Virus record (IMG/VR): IMGVR_UViG_3300045988_160012
Source: a virus
Direction: 5' to 3' (one strand)
Length of the DNA: 64,000 nt
Shown here: piece after piece, positions 48,109-64,000 of the stretch
How positions within the stretch are numbered: position 1 is the stretch's first letter
How the letters are laid out: each line of letters opens with the position of its first letter
Notes under the pieces: generated by a model
Database searches by the model: none
Seen by the model: only the letters and a program-made list of their open reading frames with translations
What the model was told of the DNA's origin: nothing
Translations under genes and position numbers: made by a program

Positions 48109-49022
48109 TTACATAGATTTAAGGTTTTTTAGAATCCATGCTATAACATCTACCGTCCAACCATTTCCACACAATTCCACTCTTTTTGAAGCAGATTTTA
48201 CACATTCAGTAAAACCATCTGGTAGTGTCTGCAATCTTTCAGCTTCAATAGGGTGTATTTTTCTAAATGAATATTCACCAAGATAAATATTATTTTTGTC
48301 ATTACCAGAAGAAGGCAGCGTATTCATCTTGATAGTATTATATCTGGCTCTATTTTGTTGTGAATAATTTCCTTTTCCGCTTGTATCCCAACTAACAATA
48401 GTGTTATTCCTATTGAATCTAATTGTATCTTTGTATTTCTCAAAGCTTTTAATATCATGTTTACATGAATACTCAATATCTTTAATAACTTTATCAGAAT
48501 GTGGATACTCTTTTGAAAATGGTATATTAGTCCAATACAACCTTTTTCGCATTTGAGCAGAAAACTCCATTGAATTTATTTCAACAGGTTCGACCTGTAA
48601 TCTTTTGGAAATTTCATTTTGAATATCTTTAGATATTGAAGAGTTGTTTTCATACAAAAAATACTTGCAATGACTTTCATTCAATGCCCTTACAAACTGC
48701 ATAAACAACTTGAATCCCATGCCATCACAAGTAACCTCTCTATCTGCTCCTCCTCTTGCAATACTCCAGTATGTACATGGACTTCCACCAATCAGCAAAT
48801 CAAATCCCTGATATTGCGTGAAATCACCTTCAAATACATCTCCTAAATATTCATCAGATGGATAATTATATTTCGCTACAGCATTGGCAGCTTCTTCTAT
48901 TTCATACGACACGTATCTCTCTACTGGAATACCAGCTCTTTCTAAAGCAACTCTTCCGCATGATATTCCGTTGAATAAACTTAATACTGTAATCCCTTTA
49001 TCTGGAATTACTCTTTTATGTT
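48109..49022 (-). CDS. dcm: C5-cytosine DNA methyltransferase lacking its start codon in the current orientation
   Basis: Motif IV GGSPCTYWS and ENN motif inside the annotated 48109..48912 ORF (GTG start). The frame stays open upstream to 49022, encoding motif I VLSLFNGISCGRVALERAGI, with no start codon before a TAG. Confidence 0.8.
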
Positions 49023-50027: not shown

Positions 50028-50786
50028 TTAAATTGCAACAGGTAAATCATTCGGTGTATAGACTGGCATTGGTTTCAGCTTAAAAATATTCTTCTTATGC
50101 ATAGAGTCAATCTTATGTTTGATATTTTCATCTTCACATTCACCTGTTCTGATATATCTGTTAAGTGTTGCATATGAAAATCCCAGATTATCTTCATCTG
50201 TAAGTCCACACAAACCATCAATCGGAACTTTTCTTGTCAACTCTTTAGGTAATCCAAGATACTCTCCAATAGCAATTACTTCATCGGTTGTAAGCAGAGA
50301 TAACGGACTAAAATCACCAGCTCCATCACCGTAACGTGTAGCGTATCCCACCCAATCTTCACTAAGATTACAAGTATTTGCCACTCTGCCATTTAAAGTC
50401 TGTGCAATAGCATATAATGTAGCCATTCTAATTCTTGCTGGAAGATTGGTACTTGTCTGCATACTCCAATGGTCGCACAACTGAGGTTTGATTTCATGTT
50501 TCAATGATTTAATTGCTCCATGAATGTCTACCGTATAGTTTTCAATACCAAGATGGTCAACAAGTTTGTATGCCATATCAATATCTGACTGTTCACCATT
50601 TGGCATAAGAACACCAATCACTCTATCTTTTCCCAGAGCTGCTACACATAATGCAGCAACTACGCTTGAATCTTTGCCACCTGAAATACCTACTACAGCA
50701 TCACAACCATTTCCATTAAGTGAAAACCAGTCCTGAATCCATGCGATAATTTCTTTTGTTGTCTTTTCTACATTAAACTTATACAT
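50028..50786 (-). CDS. nadE: NH3-dependent NAD+ synthetase
   Basis: PP-loop VVGISGGKDSSVVAAL and NadE-like length and pattern. Confidence 0.8.
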   Translation of the reverse strand: MYKFNVEKTTKEIIAWIQDWFSLNGNGCDAVVGISGGKDSSVVAALCVAALGKDRVIGVLMPNGEQSDIDMAYKLVDHLGIENYTVDIHGAIKSLKHEIKPQLCDHWSMQTSTNLPARIRMATLYAIAQTLNGRVANTCNLSEDWVGYATRYGDGAGDFSPLSLLTTDEVIAIGEYLGLPKELTRKVPIDGLCGLTDEDNLGFSYATLNRYIRTGECEDENIKHKIDSMHKKNIFKLKPMPVYTPNDLPVAI

Positions 50787-50846: not shown

Positions 50847-51374
50847 TTAACCTAAATCATATCTCCAAATTTCTACATCTACAGAAGATTTACCAAACAC
50901 ATCCTGAATAATTTTATACACATCATTCCAATCTGCACCACCTCTATAGCTTCCAATTCGATATGGCATAGCAACTGTCGCTCCAATCTTCTCAGCTTTC
51001 TCACGAACATCCAAGAAAGCCATTTTCATTGCAGTTAAATCAGTCTGCTGCTCATCCATACCAAAATTCTTCTGACCAAAAAGATTAACAATATACTGAT
51101 ACTTAGAATCATATGCTTCAACATTTTCATTCTTCATAGTATCAACCATTACCATAGCCCATGTATCAACTGGAACATACTGAACTGTTCCAAGCATTTC
51201 AATTTTATTTTTATTGCAATGCTTCACATATTTAACATATGCCTTTTCAACATGAGGGTATCTGTCAGCTACCTGTGCTGCTACACCGCTTCCCATAACA
51301 CCTAAACAATTTGTCTGGTGTACAATAAAATTTGCATCTGAATCAAAAAGATTTCCATTGATGTTCTTAATCAT
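50847..51374 (-). CDS. macrodomain protein (ADP-ribose binding/processing)
   Basis: MIKNINGNLFD...FIVHQTNCLGVMGSGVAAQV matches the macro-domain signature. The start is probably the internal Met at 51374, not the annotated 51431. Confidence 0.7.
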   Translation of the reverse strand: MIKNINGNLFDSDANFIVHQTNCLGVMGSGVAAQVADRYPHVEKAYVKYVKHCNKNKIEMLGTVQYVPVDTWAMVMVDTMKNENVEAYDSKYQYIVNLFGQKNFGMDEQQTDLTAMKMAFLDVREKAEKIGATVAMPYRIGSYRGGADWNDVYKIIQDVFGKSSVDVEIWRYDLG

Positions 51375-51387
51375 CTTTATCCCTTTC

Positions 51388-51638
51388 TTAGAATCCTTTA
51401 CTTTCTGCATGGATGCTATTTCTGATTTCATTTAATGTCTGGTTACGAACAACCTTACCATTAAGGAATACAGTCTCAAGCATATTAATATCAGACTCTT
51501 TCACATCATCTGTTACAACCTGACCCTTTTGGATTCCATCAATATATTTGATTTCTCCATCTTTGTTACGATATACTCTGACCATACCCTTCTGAGATTT
51601 CTTAACACCATCACCTGTTTTCGGGTCTTTTTGAACAA
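51388..51638 (-). pseudogene. nadV: 3' fragment (~83 codons) of the NAMPT/NadV-like gene, separated from its body by the IS insertion
   Basis: The frame is open from the IS boundary: VVQKDPKTGDGVKKSQKGMVRV...NMLETVFLNGKVVRNQTLNEIRNS. This matches the conserved NAMPT C-terminus (..VFKDP...KKG..L.HTVFKNGKV...DEIRKNA). Confidence 0.7.
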
Positions 51639-51920
51639 CCCCGCCCGACGGGTCGGACGAGGATTCCGTTGCAGCCGTCAGGATTTCTCACATTGGGATG
51701 CATTGGAACCGCGATTTAGTCCAGAGTTACGCTTTTCCTAACTTCGCCGACATCTTGCGGTGCTTTGTAAGTCAGGAACAGGATTGCCCTAGTGCCGTCC
51801 GTCCACCCCCACATTGTATCATACGATTGATACACATCCAGAAAGTGGTGACAAAAGGGCAAGATTTACAGTTACAATTCTATATTGTTTTCGGGTTACC
51901 TTGATTAAAAAGTTTATAGA
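51639..51920 (-). ncRNA. putative omegaRNA/reRNA scaffold of TnpB (3' end of tnpB through right-end hairpin)
   Basis: GC-rich, structure-rich non-coding stretch between the tnpB stop and the IS end. Its position matches the established location of TnpB guide RNAs. Confidence 0.35.
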
Positions 51921-53666
51921 TTACTCAAATACTGGCATATACCGTATTTTCATTTCAGCGGCTAAAGTTCTTAAACTTGGTCGCTTTCTTTCTTCTAGCA
52001 CCTCATACGGAATGCTTCGGTAGAAGAAATGTTTTCGAATACCTGAAAATGTATTTGTGATCCTTGCCCAGATATTCTTGTAGGTTTCTTGTGAAAACTC
52101 TGGTACAGTACCTTCTTTTGTTTTCAGAAGATTTAGCATCCGCGAGTCTGGTACCAGTTTCTCATACAAACCGAGACCTACCAGACCAATCGTATATGCC
52201 GCAGCTTGATGAATGGAAATTCCATACTTTCGCATGAACAGAAACTTTCCCATTTGACTGGTATAGGCCGGATCAATCTTGCAAAAGGCAATTTCTCGTT
52301 TTAAGCTCTGATTTTCGATGCTTGATGCAATCCTCTGATAAGCAAATAAGGTCATATGATGATTTCCTTTTCGATTTCCGTATTTTCTGGATGCCAGTTT
52401 GATCGTCAAATCAATGTCTTCCACAATGAGACGTTTATCCTTTTCTGCACACCAATCAAATATATCCTTCACTGCTGCTCCCAAAATATTTGTAACCTGA
52501 CCAGTAGATTTGTTCATAAGGTCAAATCGAATTAACTTCTGGTCAAGCAGTTTTCCGGTTTCATCCAGTTCTGCCAATGCAAAATGATCATAATTAATAT
52601 CCATAGAAATTGCACCATTTCCGTAATAACTGTTTTCATATGCTTTTAGCTTCATAGTAACGGAGATGATCAGATACTGCTTATTTTCCTTATCACGCTT
52701 CAAAATGAAATTGTAGCAAAGTGACTGTCGATCTTCTGGCTTGCAGGTAAAGTTTTTCTGAAAACTTTCTTCGTTTCTTGGAAGCTTAAAATCATGAAAG
52801 ATCGTAACAGAACCATCTATGCAGGTAACAGACAGATCTTTCCCATCATATTTACACAGGAAGTTTCCATACTTTGACGTATGTCTGCCCGGAAGTGACA
52901 TACTCTGGTGGCGCTTTTCAAAAAACTCTTGTCTCCATTTATTAGATGCCTTTTTCGAAGTTTTCTGGTCCTTATCATTTGATGAATCATCGGATTTTGT
53001 AACTTCAACTACATCTTTCTCAGAATACAACTTCTTTCCACCAAACACAATCCGCTCTGGTGGAAGTTTTTCAAGGTTCTCCAGTTTCTTCGCTTTGCGT
53101 TTTCTTGCTTCTGTTACCAAAGCCAAACGTGTCTTTAACTTACGAATATCAGCTTCAACCTTACGCTCATACTCATCCAGATTCACCATCATCTTATTAA
53201 ACAAAATGATCTTAAATCCTCTAACCTTCGACTGGCATTTCGGATATGGTTTAATCCATTTTTTTGTTTTTATATAGAGACGAATGGAGTTTTTAATTGC
53301 TCTCTTTTTATCCAACTCTTCTTTCACAGACTGAATCTTTTCATCACGATTCTTTAAATCTGCAGCGATTGTCGTTTTATAATACTTTTTTAGTTCCTTT
53401 TGTGAAGAAATCTGTCCAGAAGCTGCTGTATAGATTGCTGCATTATAATAATCATTGGTTTTGTATTTTTCTTTCAAAAAGACAGGATAGGCATGGTCAA
53501 GTAACGGCCCTGCATTTAAATATTTCTGATCATAGAGTGCATTGTACAGATCCATTTTGGCATCATTAAATACACGCATCGTCTCTAGAAGCGATGCGGC
53601 ATTTTCAATGGTTTTCTTATCTAAATAGTAACGCTTATCCGAATTGATTGTCCTTGATAGTTCCAT
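51921..53666 (-). CDS. tnpB: TnpB-like RuvC nuclease (OrfB_IS605 family), atypical long form
   Basis: RuvC-I ISMDINYDHFA, RuvC-II RLIVEDIDL, and the hallmark IDPAYTSQ. Probable ATG start at 53666 with RBS CCGAGGT (the track start at 53705 is a TTG). No CxxC...CxxC zinc finger after PAYTSQ. Confidence 0.6.
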   Translation of the reverse strand: MELSRTINSDKRYYLDKKTIENAASLLETMRVFNDAKMDLYNALYDQKYLNAGPLLDHAYPVFLKEKYKTNDYYNAAIYTAASGQISSQKELKKYYKTTIAADLKNRDEKIQSVKEELDKKRAIKNSIRLYIKTKKWIKPYPKCQSKVRGFKIILFNKMMVNLDEYERKVEADIRKLKTRLALVTEARKRKAKKLENLEKLPPERIVFGGKKLYSEKDVVEVTKSDDSSNDKDQKTSKKASNKWRQEFFEKRHQSMSLPGRHTSKYGNFLCKYDGKDLSVTCIDGSVTIFHDFKLPRNEESFQKNFTCKPEDRQSLCYNFILKRDKENKQYLIISVTMKLKAYENSYYGNGAISMDINYDHFALAELDETGKLLDQKLIRFDLMNKSTGQVTNILGAAVKDIFDWCAEKDKRLIVEDIDLTIKLASRKYGNRKGNHHMTLFAYQRIASSIENQSLKREIAFCKIDPAYTSQMGKFLFMRKYGISIHQAAAYTIGLVGLGLYEKLVPDSRMLNLLKTKEGTVPEFSQETYKNIWARITNTFSGIRKHFFYRSIPYEVLEERKRPSLRTLAAEMKIRYMPVFE

Positions 53667-53699
53667 GCAAATTACCTCGGTTGAAAAATAGGTTAACTG

Positions 53700-53755
53700 T
53701 TGCAATATCTCTTTAAATATGCTATTATTATAGCATATTTAAAGAGATATTGCAA
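53700..53755. promoter_or_regulatory. perfect 26-bp-arm palindrome (TTGCAATATCTCTTTAAATATGCTAT tatt ATAGCATATTTAAAGAGATATTGCAA) between divergent tnpB and tnpA
   Basis: Read directly; sits in the divergent promoter/operator position. Confidence 0.7.
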
Positions 53756-53786
53756 GTATCGATTGTAAAATGAACGGAGGTTTCTT

Positions 53787-54236
53787 ATGGACGATTTAAA
53801 CAGAAAACGACATGCCGTTTACAAACTCACTTATCATGCAGTGTTTGTTATTAAATATCGCAGAAGGGTAATGACAGAACCCATCATTACACACATGAGA
53901 CAGTATGCTACTCATCTGATTGAACAGTGTTATCAGGGAAAGCTTCTCGAACTAAATGGAGAACCCGATCACATCCATATCCTGTTTGAACTTCCTGCAA
54001 CAGCAGCTCCATCCGTTGTTGTGTGCAGTCTTAAGACCCAACTTTCAAAAGAAGTTCGAGCAAAATTTTGGGATAAGATCAAAGATAAGCTCTGGAAGGA
54101 TAGCTTCTGGTCAGACAGTTATTTCATTACCACTACCGGAGGCGCAAACATTGAAACACTAGAAAGATATATCCAAGACCAAGGGATTGAAAAACCAAAA
54201 CGAAAATATACCAAAAGACAAGCAAAGAAAATGTGA
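53787..54236 (+). CDS. tnpA: IS200-type HuH Y1 transposase
   Basis: HuH motif DHIHILF; catalytic Tyr region FWSDSYFITTTGG; RBS GGAGG. Confidence 0.85.
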   Translation: MDDLNRKRHAVYKLTYHAVFVIKYRRRVMTEPIITHMRQYATHLIEQCYQGKLLELNGEPDHIHILFELPATAAPSVVVCSLKTQLSKEVRAKFWDKIKDKLWKDSFWSDSYFITTTGGANIETLERYIQDQGIEKPKRKYTKRQAKKM

Positions 54237-54293
54237 AAATACCATTGCACTTGATATTGATTTATTTTTTATGCCGCATTCATCCCCGCCCGA

Positions 54294-55838
54294 CTATGTC
54301 GGACGAGGTTTTCTGCGGAGAACTGGATAAACCAAAATAGGTTTACCATTGATTTCAGCATATGTAGCTTTATAAGCCCAGCCCTGTGTATCTCTTGTGT
54401 TATACTGGAAACTGTAAGAACCAGCACCAAATACTACATTTTCAACTGCATAGCCAAGGTTAGTCATATGATTACAAATGCTTTCACATCTTTCAAGTGT
54501 AATAGCATCTCCGTACACCATTCCAATATGAGAGTCTAATACTTTATACCCCTTAGAGTTTATAGTTCCACCGAAAATCTCCCAAAGAATATCCAGTGTT
54601 CCTCTCTCTTCAATAGTGGCATCACGATATGTGAATGTGTCGTTCTCACCATCATTAGACCATGTAGCAATATATTTCTTATTTCCAATCTCAAGGTAAA
54701 TTGGAACAAGCTGTCCAGACGTATCTGTTTCATTGCAATAAAGTGACTGCATCATCGGACTTCTGGTATAGTAAGATTCAAATGCTTCTTTACTTTCATG
54801 GGCTTTCCACATTGGGGCAATACCACAAATAATCTCTTCTGGGTCACCGCTGTCAGGTCTAATATTGATTCTGCCTGTATGATTAAGAATTACATCCTTA
54901 TTTTTTCTAACAATATTGTCAACAAAATTCCAGTAATCATAACTGTCTGCCACAAAGCTGAAAGGTTTATTTGGATAAAGCTCTTTACACATTCTTACAA
55001 AAAATGTTTCTTCATCTCCATCTACTGCATAATTGCTTGTAGTACAAGAATGTTCAACAGATGCAGACCAGCTTCCAACATCCTCATTTTCAACATCAGC
55101 TCCATAGTAATCACAAAGATACTGAATTGAAGGGATTGTAGATGTTTTATCGAAGCTTGTTAAAAATGCAGCTCCGCTTGTAATAGCAGCATCAAGACTA
55201 GCCATACCTCTAAAAGAAAAATCGCCACAACCAACTCTCTTCCAATTCGGATTGTCAGATGTTAAAACAATATATTTTTCAATAATCTTTCTGTAAATAT
55301 AAGCTCTTGTTGCTGTTGTTGTAGGTAACCATAAATTACAAGAAAATAATGTCTCAAGATAATTTGTTACCCATGCAAAATCAGGATGTGTATTTTCGAC
55401 TGTACAACAAGGTACTCTATATGGTACTTTTGTACCTTCTGGCAAAGCCTTAATCTCAATCGGGAGATAGCCAAGTTTATGAAGTGCTTCAATATGTTCT
55501 GTATGAGCATTTTCATCAAATGTATTATGGATATACAACTTATACTCATTAAGCACTTCGTCTAACGGTCTATCAAAGAAATATTCATTAAACTGTTTTA
55601 CCAAATATTCCTTAATAAATCCCTGTAATCCAAACCAGATTACAAATTTGCTCTGAGGAAAGAATTTGTTACTACGTGGTGTCCAAGTGGAATACATCAT
55701 TGTCATTCCATCTGGATACATAGCCCGATGTGCAATTTTATAAAAATCGCATAATAACATCATATTCTTCATTTTACTTATCCTCCTTACAATGGCATCC
55801 ACAACCGCAATCACATACGTTCTCAGCATAATCAACAT
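54294..55838 (-). CDS. nadV: nicotinamide phosphoribosyltransferase-like (NAMPT/NadV or Namat) body; C-terminus truncated by IS (last ~7 codons read into IS hairpin)
   Basis: NAMPT-like length and architecture. The C-terminus ...GKPILVYPVLRRKPRPT* ends inside the IS end. Its native continuation is found at 51638-51388. Confidence 0.7.
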   Translation of the reverse strand: MLIMLRTYVIAVVDAIVRRISKMKNMMLLCDFYKIAHRAMYPDGMTMMYSTWTPRSNKFFPQSKFVIWFGLQGFIKEYLVKQFNEYFFDRPLDEVLNEYKLYIHNTFDENAHTEHIEALHKLGYLPIEIKALPEGTKVPYRVPCCTVENTHPDFAWVTNYLETLFSCNLWLPTTTATRAYIYRKIIEKYIVLTSDNPNWKRVGCGDFSFRGMASLDAAITSGAAFLTSFDKTSTIPSIQYLCDYYGADVENEDVGSWSASVEHSCTTSNYAVDGDEETFFVRMCKELYPNKPFSFVADSYDYWNFVDNIVRKNKDVILNHTGRINIRPDSGDPEEIICGIAPMWKAHESKEAFESYYTRSPMMQSLYCNETDTSGQLVPIYLEIGNKKYIATWSNDGENDTFTYRDATIEERGTLDILWEIFGGTINSKGYKVLDSHIGMVYGDAITLERCESICNHMTNLGYAVENVVFGAGSYSFQYNTRDTQGWAYKATYAEINGKPILVYPVLRRKPRPT

Positions 55839-56709
55839 TCATAGCAAACACAGTTACATTTTCATCACTTTTAAAAGGATAAATGCTATCTGTTGTGAAT
55901 ACATGGTCAATCAGCTTTCTGTGCTGAGTTGTTCCGAAAATACTTTTCTTTTCATAGTCCACTGTAAGAAGATTCATTTTATCGTCACCAAACTGACCAT
56001 CATAAATACTCTTTTCACAATGAGAAACAAACAGATAAATGTTTCTTGCCCCCATCTCTTTCAATTTCTTTGCTGCATAATAGAAAGTTCCACCCTTACT
56101 ACAAATATCATCACGAATAAGAATATCTTTTCCTTTAATATCTTCAGGTTTAATTCCCATGACATCTAATCCAAGAATCCGACCTGTTCCCCATTCTCTT
56201 TTCTTAACACCAAATGCATACGGAATCTTAATCCCTTTAGAATATCTCTTCATAGCCCCCTCATCAGGGAAAAACATAATCGGTGCAATACCATCGTGAA
56301 TCAACATATCAAGCACGTTGCTCACAAAAATATTAGTATTGATTACATTGCAATTCTTGATAGTTGCTGCTACAACACTTGAATGTGGGTCAACTACAAA
56401 TACTCTGTCAAAATTCAGAGAATTAATCATTTCTGCAAAATACTTCATAGCAAAAATATCATTTGGCTCTTCGATTCTGTCCATTCTTGCGTTAGGTACA
56501 TATGGAAGGAAAAGAGATACATTCATTCCATGTGCCTGATAGAATTTTGTTAAGAATGAAACTGCTACAAACTCAGCATCATCCTCATAATTCCAAGTAA
56601 TAACAACTGTTTCTCCCTGTAAGCTAACATCACCTTTTACATTTGCTGTTCCATCAGGAAATCTCTTTACTTCAACTTCTTTTCCATTTACTCTAATCAT
56701 AATCTTCAC
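55774..56709 (-). CDS. prs: ribose-phosphate pyrophosphokinase-like (Prs; or ADPR-PP synthetase Adps of NARP1-type pathways)
   Basis: VKRFPDGTANV...; LPYVPNARMDR; PRPP-binding loop LIRDDICSKGGT. Confidence 0.7.
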   Translation of the reverse strand: MKIMIRVNGKEVEVKRFPDGTANVKGDVSLQGETVVITWNYEDDAEFVAVSFLTKFYQAHGMNVSLFLPYVPNARMDRIEEPNDIFAMKYFAEMINSLNFDRVFVVDPHSSVVAATIKNCNVINTNIFVSNVLDMLIHDGIAPIMFFPDEGAMKRYSKGIKIPYAFGVKKREWGTGRILGLDVMGIKPEDIKGKDILIRDDICSKGGTFYYAAKKLKEMGARNIYLFVSHCEKSIYDGQFGDDKMNLLTVDYEKKSIFGTTQHRKLIDHVFTTDSIYPFKSDENVTVFAMNVDYAENVCDCGCGCHCKEDK

Positions 56710-63486: not shown

Positions 63487-64000
63487 TAATACTGTACAGC
63501 TTCCTGTCTGGTGATAAAGAAATGGATTCCAGCAGCACATTCATCCCATCTGTCTGTCTCAAAATCCTCTACTTCAACCGTTGTTCCTACACGATAAATA
63601 AAATTACTATCGTAATTACTCGGAATTGAAGTTAATCCATCATCCTCACCATCTAAAGTTGTAATAGAAAGAACTTCTGCTTTAGAACAACGACACTTAC
63701 GACTTGTGGCACTGGAACGTAAAGCATCTTCCGTTATTCTAAGTTTTACAATATGACCATTTGCTTTCTTATAACCAATGAATGAACCCTCTTCAGGGCA
63801 TACAAGAGCAAAGAACCCTGTACACTCATCATATCTAACATTCAGGAGGTCAGCACTTCTGAGGTCAGCACCACTGAGGTCAGCACCACTGAGGTCAGCA
63901 CTTCTGAGGTCAGCACTTCTGAGGTTAGCACCACTGAGGTTAGCACCACTGAGGTCAGCACTTCTGAGGTTAGCACCACTGAGGTCAGCACTTCTGAGGT
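63487..64000 (-). CDS. pentapeptide-repeat protein (partial; N-terminus beyond window)
   Basis: The frame is open to the window edge. 15-bp tandem repeats encode [20 protein letters not shown] ... (A[DN]LXX consensus). Ends ...[22 protein letters not shown] at 63487. Confidence 0.65.
63846..64000. repeat. 15-bp tandem repeats (gaggtcagcac[tc][ta]ct), >=10 units, coding
   Basis: Read directly. Confidence 0.9.

Follow-up and report, generated by a model that had tools for sequence, protein, structure and literature searches.

A recently inserted IS200/IS605 element in a gut phage encodes a putative RNA-guided TnpB of the RIIIr-4 type

We analyzed an insertion sequence (IS) of the IS200/IS605 type that lies in a 64,000-nucleotide stretch of virus DNA (IMG/VR record IMGVR_UViG_3300045988_160012), here called the window, whose positions are used throughout. 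The element is intact, spans positions 51631-54326 (2,696 bp, slightly wider than first noted), and interrupts a NAMPT-like (nadV/Namat-like) gene of a gut phage. It carries two divergent genes, the transposase gene tnpA (53787-54236, + strand, 149 residues) and a tnpB-like gene of the RIIIr-4 type (51921-53666, - strand, 581 residues), with a 56-bp perfect palindrome between them (53700-53755). From the stop codon of tnpB to the right end, 290 nucleotides (51631-51920, - strand) make up a candidate omegaRNA scaffold. The layout is that of an ordinary IS200/IS605 element.

More than 60 other copies and four empty sites define the ends, placing the left end (LE) at 54326 and the right end (RE) at 51631; the borders 51639 and 54320, which an earlier note had read from the letters of this DNA, are replaced on these grounds. 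The same protein is encoded in seven further contigs, in each of which one block of DNA (98.9-99.2% identical), running from CCAGTTCTCC directly after TTTAT to GGGGTTGTTCAA, stands between unrelated flanks. Empty sites were sought in IMG/VR with a gapped pattern made from the two nadV flanks, and four phage contigs (L026-L029) were found to join these flanks as CCTATTTTGG-TTTAT-AAAGACCCG, an exact empty site. On either side these IS-free contigs match the window at 97.7-99.3% identity, with alignments that stop exactly at 51630 and 54327; the element is therefore 54326-51631, and the target-adjacent motif (TAM) 5'-TTTAT-3', at 54331-54327 on the - strand, is target DNA outside it (the empty sites read TTTTGG TTTAT AAAGACCC). 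Insertion took place 3' of TTTAT without target duplication, as TTTAT is directly followed by AAAGACCC in the four contigs. We also looked for shared flanks among the copies and for a duplication at the empty site, both of which would argue against a mobile IS, and saw neither. As near-identical sibling contigs carry the empty site, the insertion is recent in this phage lineage.

Both ends carry subterminal, imperfect hairpins in the same orientation, and terminal inverted repeats are absent. The LE (54237-54326, - strand) begins with 18 nucleotides, CCAGTTCTCCGCAGAAAA, followed by the hairpin CCTCGTCCGAC-ATA-GTCGGGCGGGG (+ strand 54284-54308), and its boundary is common to all copies. The RE (51631-51662, - strand) consists of the hairpin CCTCGTCCGAC-CC-GTCGGGCGGGG (+ strand 51639-51662) and then TTGTTCAA, the last 8 nucleotides of the element; GTTCAA is the terminus of all family members. 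The near-identical hairpins and their asymmetric spacing to the junctions (18 nucleotides on the left, 8 on the right) had been noticed before and are confirmed, a repeat finder also returning the hairpin-forming sequence in two direct copies near 51636-51665 and 54281-54311. In distant copies the hairpins covary (G:C to A:T) and keep one mismatch. On the left, the tetranucleotide 5' of the hairpin is AAAA and the cleavage site is TTAT; on the right, these are GAAT and TCAA. In IS608 the pairs of guide tetranucleotide and cleavage site are AAAG/TTAC and GAAT/TCAA; by this analogy, the pairs AAAA/TTAT and GAAT/TCAA would fit the IS608 code, with the change expected for TTAT versus TTAC, which we regard as a lead.

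The earlier note had recognized an IS200/IS605 TnpA of the HUH Y1 class from its HIHIL and SYF motifs; both are present in the translation, and the protein matches Pfam PF01797 (Y1_Tnp, E=6.8e-33) and the IS200 equivalog NCBIfam NF033573 (114.7 bits, cut-off 55 bits). Divergent tnpA adjoins the tnpB-like gene in relatives down to 46% TnpB protein identity, while some members at greater distance (41-60% identity) are derivatives with tnpB only, which retain LE, RE, and TTTAT. Scans of genome and metagenome collections added about 100 loci, almost all of them from samples of the human gut, including two copies in Anthropogastromicrobium aceti. Most other copies lie at unrelated sites, many of them apparently intergenic. 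Counting distinct left flanks over all loci (41 insertion sites, one row re-read by eye), TTTAT was found at 37, the others being GTTAT, CTTAT, TCTAT, and CGTAT. Comparing the window copy with another that is 84% identical gave a ratio of nonsynonymous to synonymous substitution rates (dN/dS) of 0.079. Megablast of the element against 50,697 deposited phage genomes returned no match, and tblastn returned only three distant Thermus phage genes annotated as 'TnpB-family transposase' (24% identity).

Several members of the family deserve mention in their own right. A tnpB-only member at 41% identity (protein P0112, L118-L121) keeps LE, RE, and TTTAT intact and recurs in many assemblies with the same genes around it; the collection lists it in 116 blocks, and we read 24 contigs. 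Either this is a non-autonomous copy fixed in a widespread genome, or domestication is beginning here. Relatives at 23-28% identity in Sporosarcina, Bacillus, Neobacillus, Micrococcaceae, and Vibrio (L018, L020-L024) retain NPAYTSQIG...H..AA..IARRG, have no zinc finger, and have no Y1 tnpA within 2.5 kb; their open reading frames (ORFs) are about 520-540 residues long in the Bacillales and shorter in Micrococcaceae and Vibrio, the Vibrio copy containing internal stop codons. One of the two copies in Firmicutes bacterium OM04-13BH (L015, 2489-4234) has an in-frame stop near the C-terminus of the tnpB-like gene (ELPY, stop, VLEE) and, judging from this stop, is a decaying copy. Finally, four database homologues (P0056, P0100, P0118, P0119) are chimeric ORFs in which part of the TnpB-like protein is joined to integrase Arm-binding, FtsW, methyltransferase, or intein (Hint/LAGLIDADG) domains; they are probably gene calls across insertion junctions, or assembly chimeras.

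The tnpB-like gene lies in a large ORF of 594 residues (51921-53705, - strand). Its real start is most likely the ATG at 53666, because homologues begin with MELxRT and a GAGG sequence lies 8 nucleotides upstream, which gives a protein of 581 residues. Residue numbers below are those of the 594-residue ORF; subtracting 13 gives those of the 581-residue protein, so that D369 (RuvC-I), E429 (RuvC-II), and H499 (RuvC-III position) correspond to D356, E416, and H486. A TnpB of about 580 residues with the motifs SMDIN, IVEDIDL, and IDPAYTSQ had been proposed earlier, and the translation contains all three. A Pfam search with the large ORF returned no match, and the NCBIfam model guided_TnpB matches residues 398-485 only (E=1e-6, 28.2 bits against a cut-off of 100). 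NCBI labels the relatives 'hypothetical protein', and the more than 120 close homologues of 560-600 residues are unannotated. A full profile search nevertheless recovered 2,278 clusters at 50% identity with E<=1e-3, of which 475 have E<=1e-30. A family of about 2,300 such clusters is thus invisible to standard annotation, and for this reason such IS copies are probably under-counted in gut genomes and phages.

Sequence searches of the PDB with the single protein and with a close-family profile found nothing. A broader family profile gave only marginal matches to Cas12j and Cas12m (E about 0.02), which were used to place H499, and hhalign gave no meaningful alignment when the family profile was compared with one sequence, that of ISDra2 TnpB, rather than with a TnpB profile. 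The fold was more informative. An AlphaFold2 model built from 48 sequences reached a mean predicted local distance difference test score of 86, and Foldseek returned Cas12f1 as the best match (E=2.4e-5). The longest structural alignments, covering 260-400 residues including regions outside RuvC, were to Cas12k, Cas12f, Cas12e, Cas12b, Fanzor2, and TnpB. Other matches were to Tex, Spt6, prefoldin, and RuvC resolvases, those to Tex, Spt6, and prefoldin probably reflecting a RuvX-like core and a long coiled coil. According to the model, the large protein has a bilobed TnpB/Cas12-type fold with RuvC split into motifs I, II, and III. The added length relative to typical TnpBs consists of two long helices (85-147 and 176-213) in a REC-like region and a C-terminal extension of about 85 residues; the coiled coil that had been predicted is present in the model, as part of an enlarged helical REC-like region rather than as the terminal add-on first imagined.

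We considered whether the large protein could be a different RuvC-fold enzyme, resolvase- or transposase-like, that shares only the PAYTSQ region with TnpB and has no RNA role. The missing Pfam match, the guided_TnpB score of 28 bits against its cut-off of 100, the empty PDB search with the close-family profile, and the presence of RuvC resolvases and Tex among the fold matches would be expected of such an enzyme. We judge this very unlikely, as the longest structural alignments are to Cas12 proteins, Fanzor2, and TnpB, the gene stands where tnpB does in an IS200/IS605 element and is followed by a structured 3' RNA that adjoins the RE, and a published RIIIr-4 TnpB, one that processes its omegaRNA, is among the matches of the family profile.

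The TnpB reading being retained, we asked what remains of its active site, using a conservation alignment of 86 members (23-67% identity). Results showed that G273, D369, E429, S483, H499, and A502 are invariant and that the spacing from S483 (in PAYTS) to H499 is 16 residues in all 86. The Asp-Glu-Asp triad is thus replaced by one in which the Asp and the Glu are invariant and the third position is an invariant His. H499 is assigned to the position of the RuvC-III Asp because, in the profile alignment, it stands three residues ahead of AA, as in D-x-N-A-A; the broader family profile aligns its 'AAyvIGRR' with 'AAINIARR' of Cas12j-type proteins. The earlier alignment by eye, which had left open His or Gln at this position, proves correct: His is supported and Gln is not. 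The C4 zinc finger (TNB domain) that typical TnpBs carry between RuvC-II and RuvC-III is absent. The window protein has no cysteine after PAYTSQ, in line with the earlier note, which saw no zinc finger there, and none of the 86 relatives has two CxxC motifs in this part; the profile alignment, which could have uncovered an overlooked canonical Asp and zinc finger, places a His against the Asp instead.

No invariant acidic residue that might compensate was found downstream of RuvC-II in the 86 members. The only acidic-rich column there is E515 (E or D in 72 of 86), 16 residues past the invariant His, and it is a candidate fourth active-site residue. His-containing triads are active in other RNase H-fold nucleases, such as the DEDH of Argonaute, the DDH of the UvrC C-terminal domain, and the H-x-x-D of Cas9 and Thermus thermophilus RuvC, while the TNB domain assists substrate loading into RuvC in Cas12 and TnpB. 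Because the three residues and their spacing are invariant, we lean toward a catalytically competent site: the chance that the D-E-H site is active in some form seems to us somewhat better than even.

These atypical features are not new. Altae-Tran et al. (2023) defined five major TnpB clades, among them RIIIr-4, whose defining traits are a RuvC-III Asp-to-His change and loss of the C4 zinc finger, and which is enriched in viruses (PMC10691335). To date a single RIIIr-4 ortholog has been tested, by Nety et al. (2023): ortholog 39 from Nocardiopsis dassonvillei, a protein of 529 residues with no listed transposase, whose RNA of 466 nucleotides shows a clear processing site (PMC10278001). With E-values set for a database of one million, our family profile matched the first 400 residues of ortholog 39 with E=3e-20 and another representative from Nety Supplementary File S3 with E=1.6e-52, whereas ISDra2 TnpB (the sequence identical to PDB 8BF8/8EXA) gave no match and E. 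coli TnpB gave E=29. The Asp-to-His change, the loss of the zinc finger, and the match of a published exemplar to the family profile lead us to place the large protein, by its sequence, with clade RIIIr-4. Our literature search found nothing on this clade after the two 2023 papers, and the searchable papers report no activity beyond RNA processing.

The 3' noncoding stretch, given as 280 nucleotides in the earlier note, had been called consistent with an omegaRNA. It is 290 nucleotides long, with 46.6% G+C against 32.9% for the window. We aligned thirteen diverse 3' regions (stop codon to right end, 274-329 nucleotides) from loci whose proteins are 41-100% identical, and RNAalifold proposed 42 pairs, 24 of them with compensatory changes. 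In this structure, itself derived from the same 13-locus alignment, paired cells amount to 92.5%, versus 36-48% when partners are slid by 1-3 columns, and the covariation score is 0.487 versus at most 0.13; none of 500 column shuffles matched the observed values. The main feature is a three-part long stem in which 51858-51829 pairs with 51820-51788, with a near-invariant loop UGGAYGGACGG at 51805-51795. Two further stems were found by inspection: a short stem A (about 51733-51710), which closes the conserved loop UAAC.CUGGAC.AAAU and changes as GCG/CGC, CCG/CGG, CACG/CGUG, and CUGC/GCAG, and a stem B, in which GUUCC at about 51710 pairs with the invariant GGAAUC at 51668-51661, just ahead of the RE hairpin. 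Since conserved G:U pairs are frequent, the folded strand is the tnpB sense strand. The covariation thus argues for a structured RNA consistent with an omegaRNA.

Sequence conservation among copies falls abruptly right after GTTCAA, and the guide would begin at this point, as in canonical TnpB loci. By the same analogy, the guide-templating flank is predicted to be AAAGACCCGAAAACAGGTGA (51611-51630, - strand), on the 3' exon side of nadV, which together with TTTAT makes up the empty site; the earlier proposal that the flanking nadV sequence supplies the guide is kept as a prediction. A permissive Rfam search of 51000-55000 returned only chance matches (miRNA models on the palindrome, and snoRNA models) and no intron or guide-RNA family. 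This result bears on the idea of an IStron-like self-splicing insertion that leaves the interrupted gene expressed, to which the position within a coding sequence, the common orientation of that gene and tnpB, and the G+C-rich structured RNA at one end would lend themselves. We rejected it as extremely improbable, because neither group I nor group II intron families matched either strand at E<=1, the 90 nucleotides from the left end to the tnpA stop are too few for a 5' ribozyme, and most other copies occupy unrelated, often apparently intergenic sites.

The palindrome at 53700-53755 has 26-nucleotide arms and a 4-nucleotide loop and is 100% complementary according to the repeat finder. A consensus scan found TTGCAA-17-TATAAT on the - strand, directed toward tnpB (10 of 12 matches), and TTGCAA-17-TATTAT on the + strand, directed toward tnpA (9 of 12), each with an upstream TG. 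From its sequence, the best interpretation of the palindrome is a compact bidirectional promoter, made up of two divergent, overlapping promoters of the sigma-70 type, each with an extended -10 box. As the two -10 boxes overlap at the dyad, the promoters probably compete. Of the earlier suggestion of an operator or promoter, the exact 26-nucleotide arms and the promoter part hold up, while an operator role is only possible. The perfect palindrome is specific to the window subfamily, and in other clades (the 83% clade and beyond) it is imperfect, with several mismatches, keeping only the promoter geometry, that is, the central TATAATAATA and the two -35-like hexamers.

It has been considered whether the palindrome serves mainly as the operator of a dimeric regulator, or as a hairpin, in DNA or RNA, that has a function of its own, for instance in the single-stranded intermediate of transposition. 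The 26 bp of perfect symmetry, spacer included, exceed what two promoters need, partial symmetry beyond the hexamers is retained in other clades, and with overlapping -10 boxes one polymerase or repressor would affect both genes. We think this unlikely to be its main role. What is conserved is the central TATAAT/TATTAT together with the -35-like hexamers at 17-nucleotide spacing, rather than the perfect palindrome; the element encodes no candidate DNA-binding regulator, and both predicted transcripts start within the palindrome, taking one arm each.

Considering all these results, the best overall explanation, which we hold to be fairly probable, is an intact, recent, autonomous IS200/IS605 element in a gut phage whose RNA-guided RIIIr-4 TnpB acts on the IS-free allele. 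By analogy with IS608 and ISDra2, TnpA would work by 'peel and paste', excising the top strand in single-stranded form and reinserting it. The 3' part of the tnpB transcript would be processed to an omegaRNA with its 3' end reading into the flank, and the resulting ribonucleoprotein (RNP) may recognize TTTAT plus flank, that is, the IS-free allele as found in the sibling phages. Action of the RNP on this allele, followed by recombination with an IS-bearing copy, would restore or spread the element (retention and homing), and in the phage this could amount to a homing-endonuclease-like action on co-infecting IS-free siblings. Such action has been shown for canonical TnpB, whose mechanism is reportedly treated in Karvelis (2021) and Meers (2023).

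The earlier note had compared the protein with nuclease-attenuated TnpB derivatives acting as RNA-guided regulators. We do not favor such a domesticated regulator because the family is mobile and TnpA-linked: it is multi-copy, flanked by LE and RE, and associated with tnpA down to 46% identity, with D-E-H in 86 of 86 members and a dN/dS of 0.08.

Several observations weigh against the overall explanation given above. The TnpB-like protein scores under every curated Pfam and NCBIfam cut-off (28.2 bits against 100, and 24.9 against 32). The minimum free energy of the window RNA alone is no better than that of shuffles (z=-1.3), so the case for the RNA is built on covariation; similarly, a promoter scan of the region gave 8 sites against 8.5 expected in shuffled sequence, so the promoter reading is built on position and conservation. 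RIIIr-4 ortholog 39 processed its omegaRNA and yet was scored 'N' in the double-stranded DNA TAM-depletion screen (PMC10278001 Supplementary File S2, row 39), and Cas12m2 uses a conserved HDD triad to bind one metal ion and the displaced strand, with no cutting (PMC10442227).

Ortholog 39 and the Cas12m2 precedent suggest a reading in which the TnpB-like protein is a non-cutting RNA-guided DNA binder, with one metal ion or the displaced strand bound in its D-E-H site. Such a binder may mark or open the TTTAT-plus-flank site, or may repress transcription or transposition. The absence of the TNB domain, with its role in substrate loading, would agree with this. We consider it doubtful. His triads are catalytic in other RNase H-fold nucleases, and a mobile element has a known benefit from cutting the empty site. 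Moreover, one negative in vitro screen of a distant ortholog is weak evidence, as 32 of the 59 orthologs were negative there, typical TnpBs included, and 27 active (PMC10278001), and Altae-Tran et al. take conservation to imply activity (PMC10691335).

The D-E-H TnpB might also be a mechanistically distinct RNA-guided enzyme, either a nickase or single-strand-specific nuclease, or a non-cutting R-loop former that aids re-insertion or retention where TTTAT is followed by the flank. We offer this tentatively, as something that may well prove wrong; it would explain how the RIIIr-4 ortholog processes RNA without cleaving double-stranded DNA. If true, a nickase or single-stranded DNA nuclease would match the single-stranded lifestyle of IS200/IS605 elements, and the enzyme would be a homing drive in phages. 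The element offers a biochemical test system for such questions, with exact ends, a 5-nucleotide TAM from 41 insertions, and a covariation-backed RNA scaffold, together with natural occupied and empty alleles in near-identical phages and recent, frequent movement in the human gut.

We also looked at the gene that received the element. The 5' part of the NAMPT-like gene (54327-55838, - strand; Pfam NAPRTase and NAMPT_N) is followed beyond the element by a 3' part of 80 codons (51388-51630, - strand), and the gene is uninterrupted in the four IS-free contigs. Removing 51631-54326 restores the frame, INGKPILVY being continued by KDPKTGDG. Judging from the reading frames, the insertion knocks out a phage nicotinamide adenine dinucleotide (NAD) salvage gene, possibly an anti-defence gene. 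A phosphoribosyl pyrophosphate (PRPP) synthetase-like gene (55774-56709; weak Pfam matches below cut-off) adjoins it, with genes for a NAD synthase and a macro-domain protein close by (50028-50786 and 50847-51431). The pairing of NAMPT-like and PRPP-synthetase-like genes resembles, at the sequence level, NARP1, a phage NAD+ reconstitution pathway made of Adps and Namat (bioRxiv 10.1101/2024.02.11.579819). If the pair is indeed NARP1-like, the IS removed the last 80 codons of a likely anti-defence gene. Elsewhere, BLAST matches to related phage contigs overlap themselves at 15-nucleotide offsets at the end of the window (63846-64000), which indicates an array of tandem repeats of about 15-nucleotide period there. 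At 48974-48983 the window lacks about 1 kb that one sibling contig (L026, 3569-4611) carries, a further indel that separates the sibling phages.

Compared with known systems, the closest relative is the RIIIr-4 exemplar ortholog 39, with which the window protein shares the RuvC-III His for Asp, the lack of the C4 zinc finger, and a length above that of typical TnpBs (529 versus 581 residues), as well as the enrichment of the clade in viruses and a long omegaRNA-type 3' RNA. Unlike the exemplar, which has no listed transposase association, the window subfamily is tightly linked to a Y1 TnpA, lives in low-G+C gut Firmicutes and their phages, and has defined ends, a TTTAT TAM, and natural empty sites. 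With IS608 and ISDra2 the element shares the Y1 TnpA, the direct-orientation subterminal imperfect hairpins, insertion 3' of a motif of 4-5 nucleotides without duplication, a right end finishing in TCAA, and an omegaRNA, here a candidate, at the 3' end. Its TnpB sets it apart from them: the protein has 581 rather than about 400 residues, D-E-H where theirs reads D-E-D, a coiled-coil REC region of greater size, and a C-terminus newly extended by about 85 residues, and it lacks the TNB zinc finger. The RNA scaffold is different, too, in that, as analyzed, it lies entirely downstream of the stop codon.

Cas12m2 (type V-M, HDD) and Cas12k (type V-K) are alike in their compact Cas12/TnpB fold, their non-canonical or inactive RuvC site, and their coiled-coil REC. 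They are immobile genes associated with CRISPR or Tn7, whereas the window element has neither a CRISPR array nor Tn7 machinery; in addition, Cas12m2 keeps its zinc finger and is changed in RuvC-I and RuvC-II, not in RuvC-III (PMC10442227). TldR proteins resemble the window protein in that they derive from TnpB, their RuvC motif is altered, and a guide RNA is encoded downstream of them. TldRs have lost the transposon ends and TnpA and target host promoters. On the contrary, the window family retains LE and RE, and TnpA down to 46% identity, is multi-copy at 41 distinct sites, and would take its guide from any insertion flank, while its RuvC residues are not decayed, with an invariant D-E-H and a dN/dS of 0.079.

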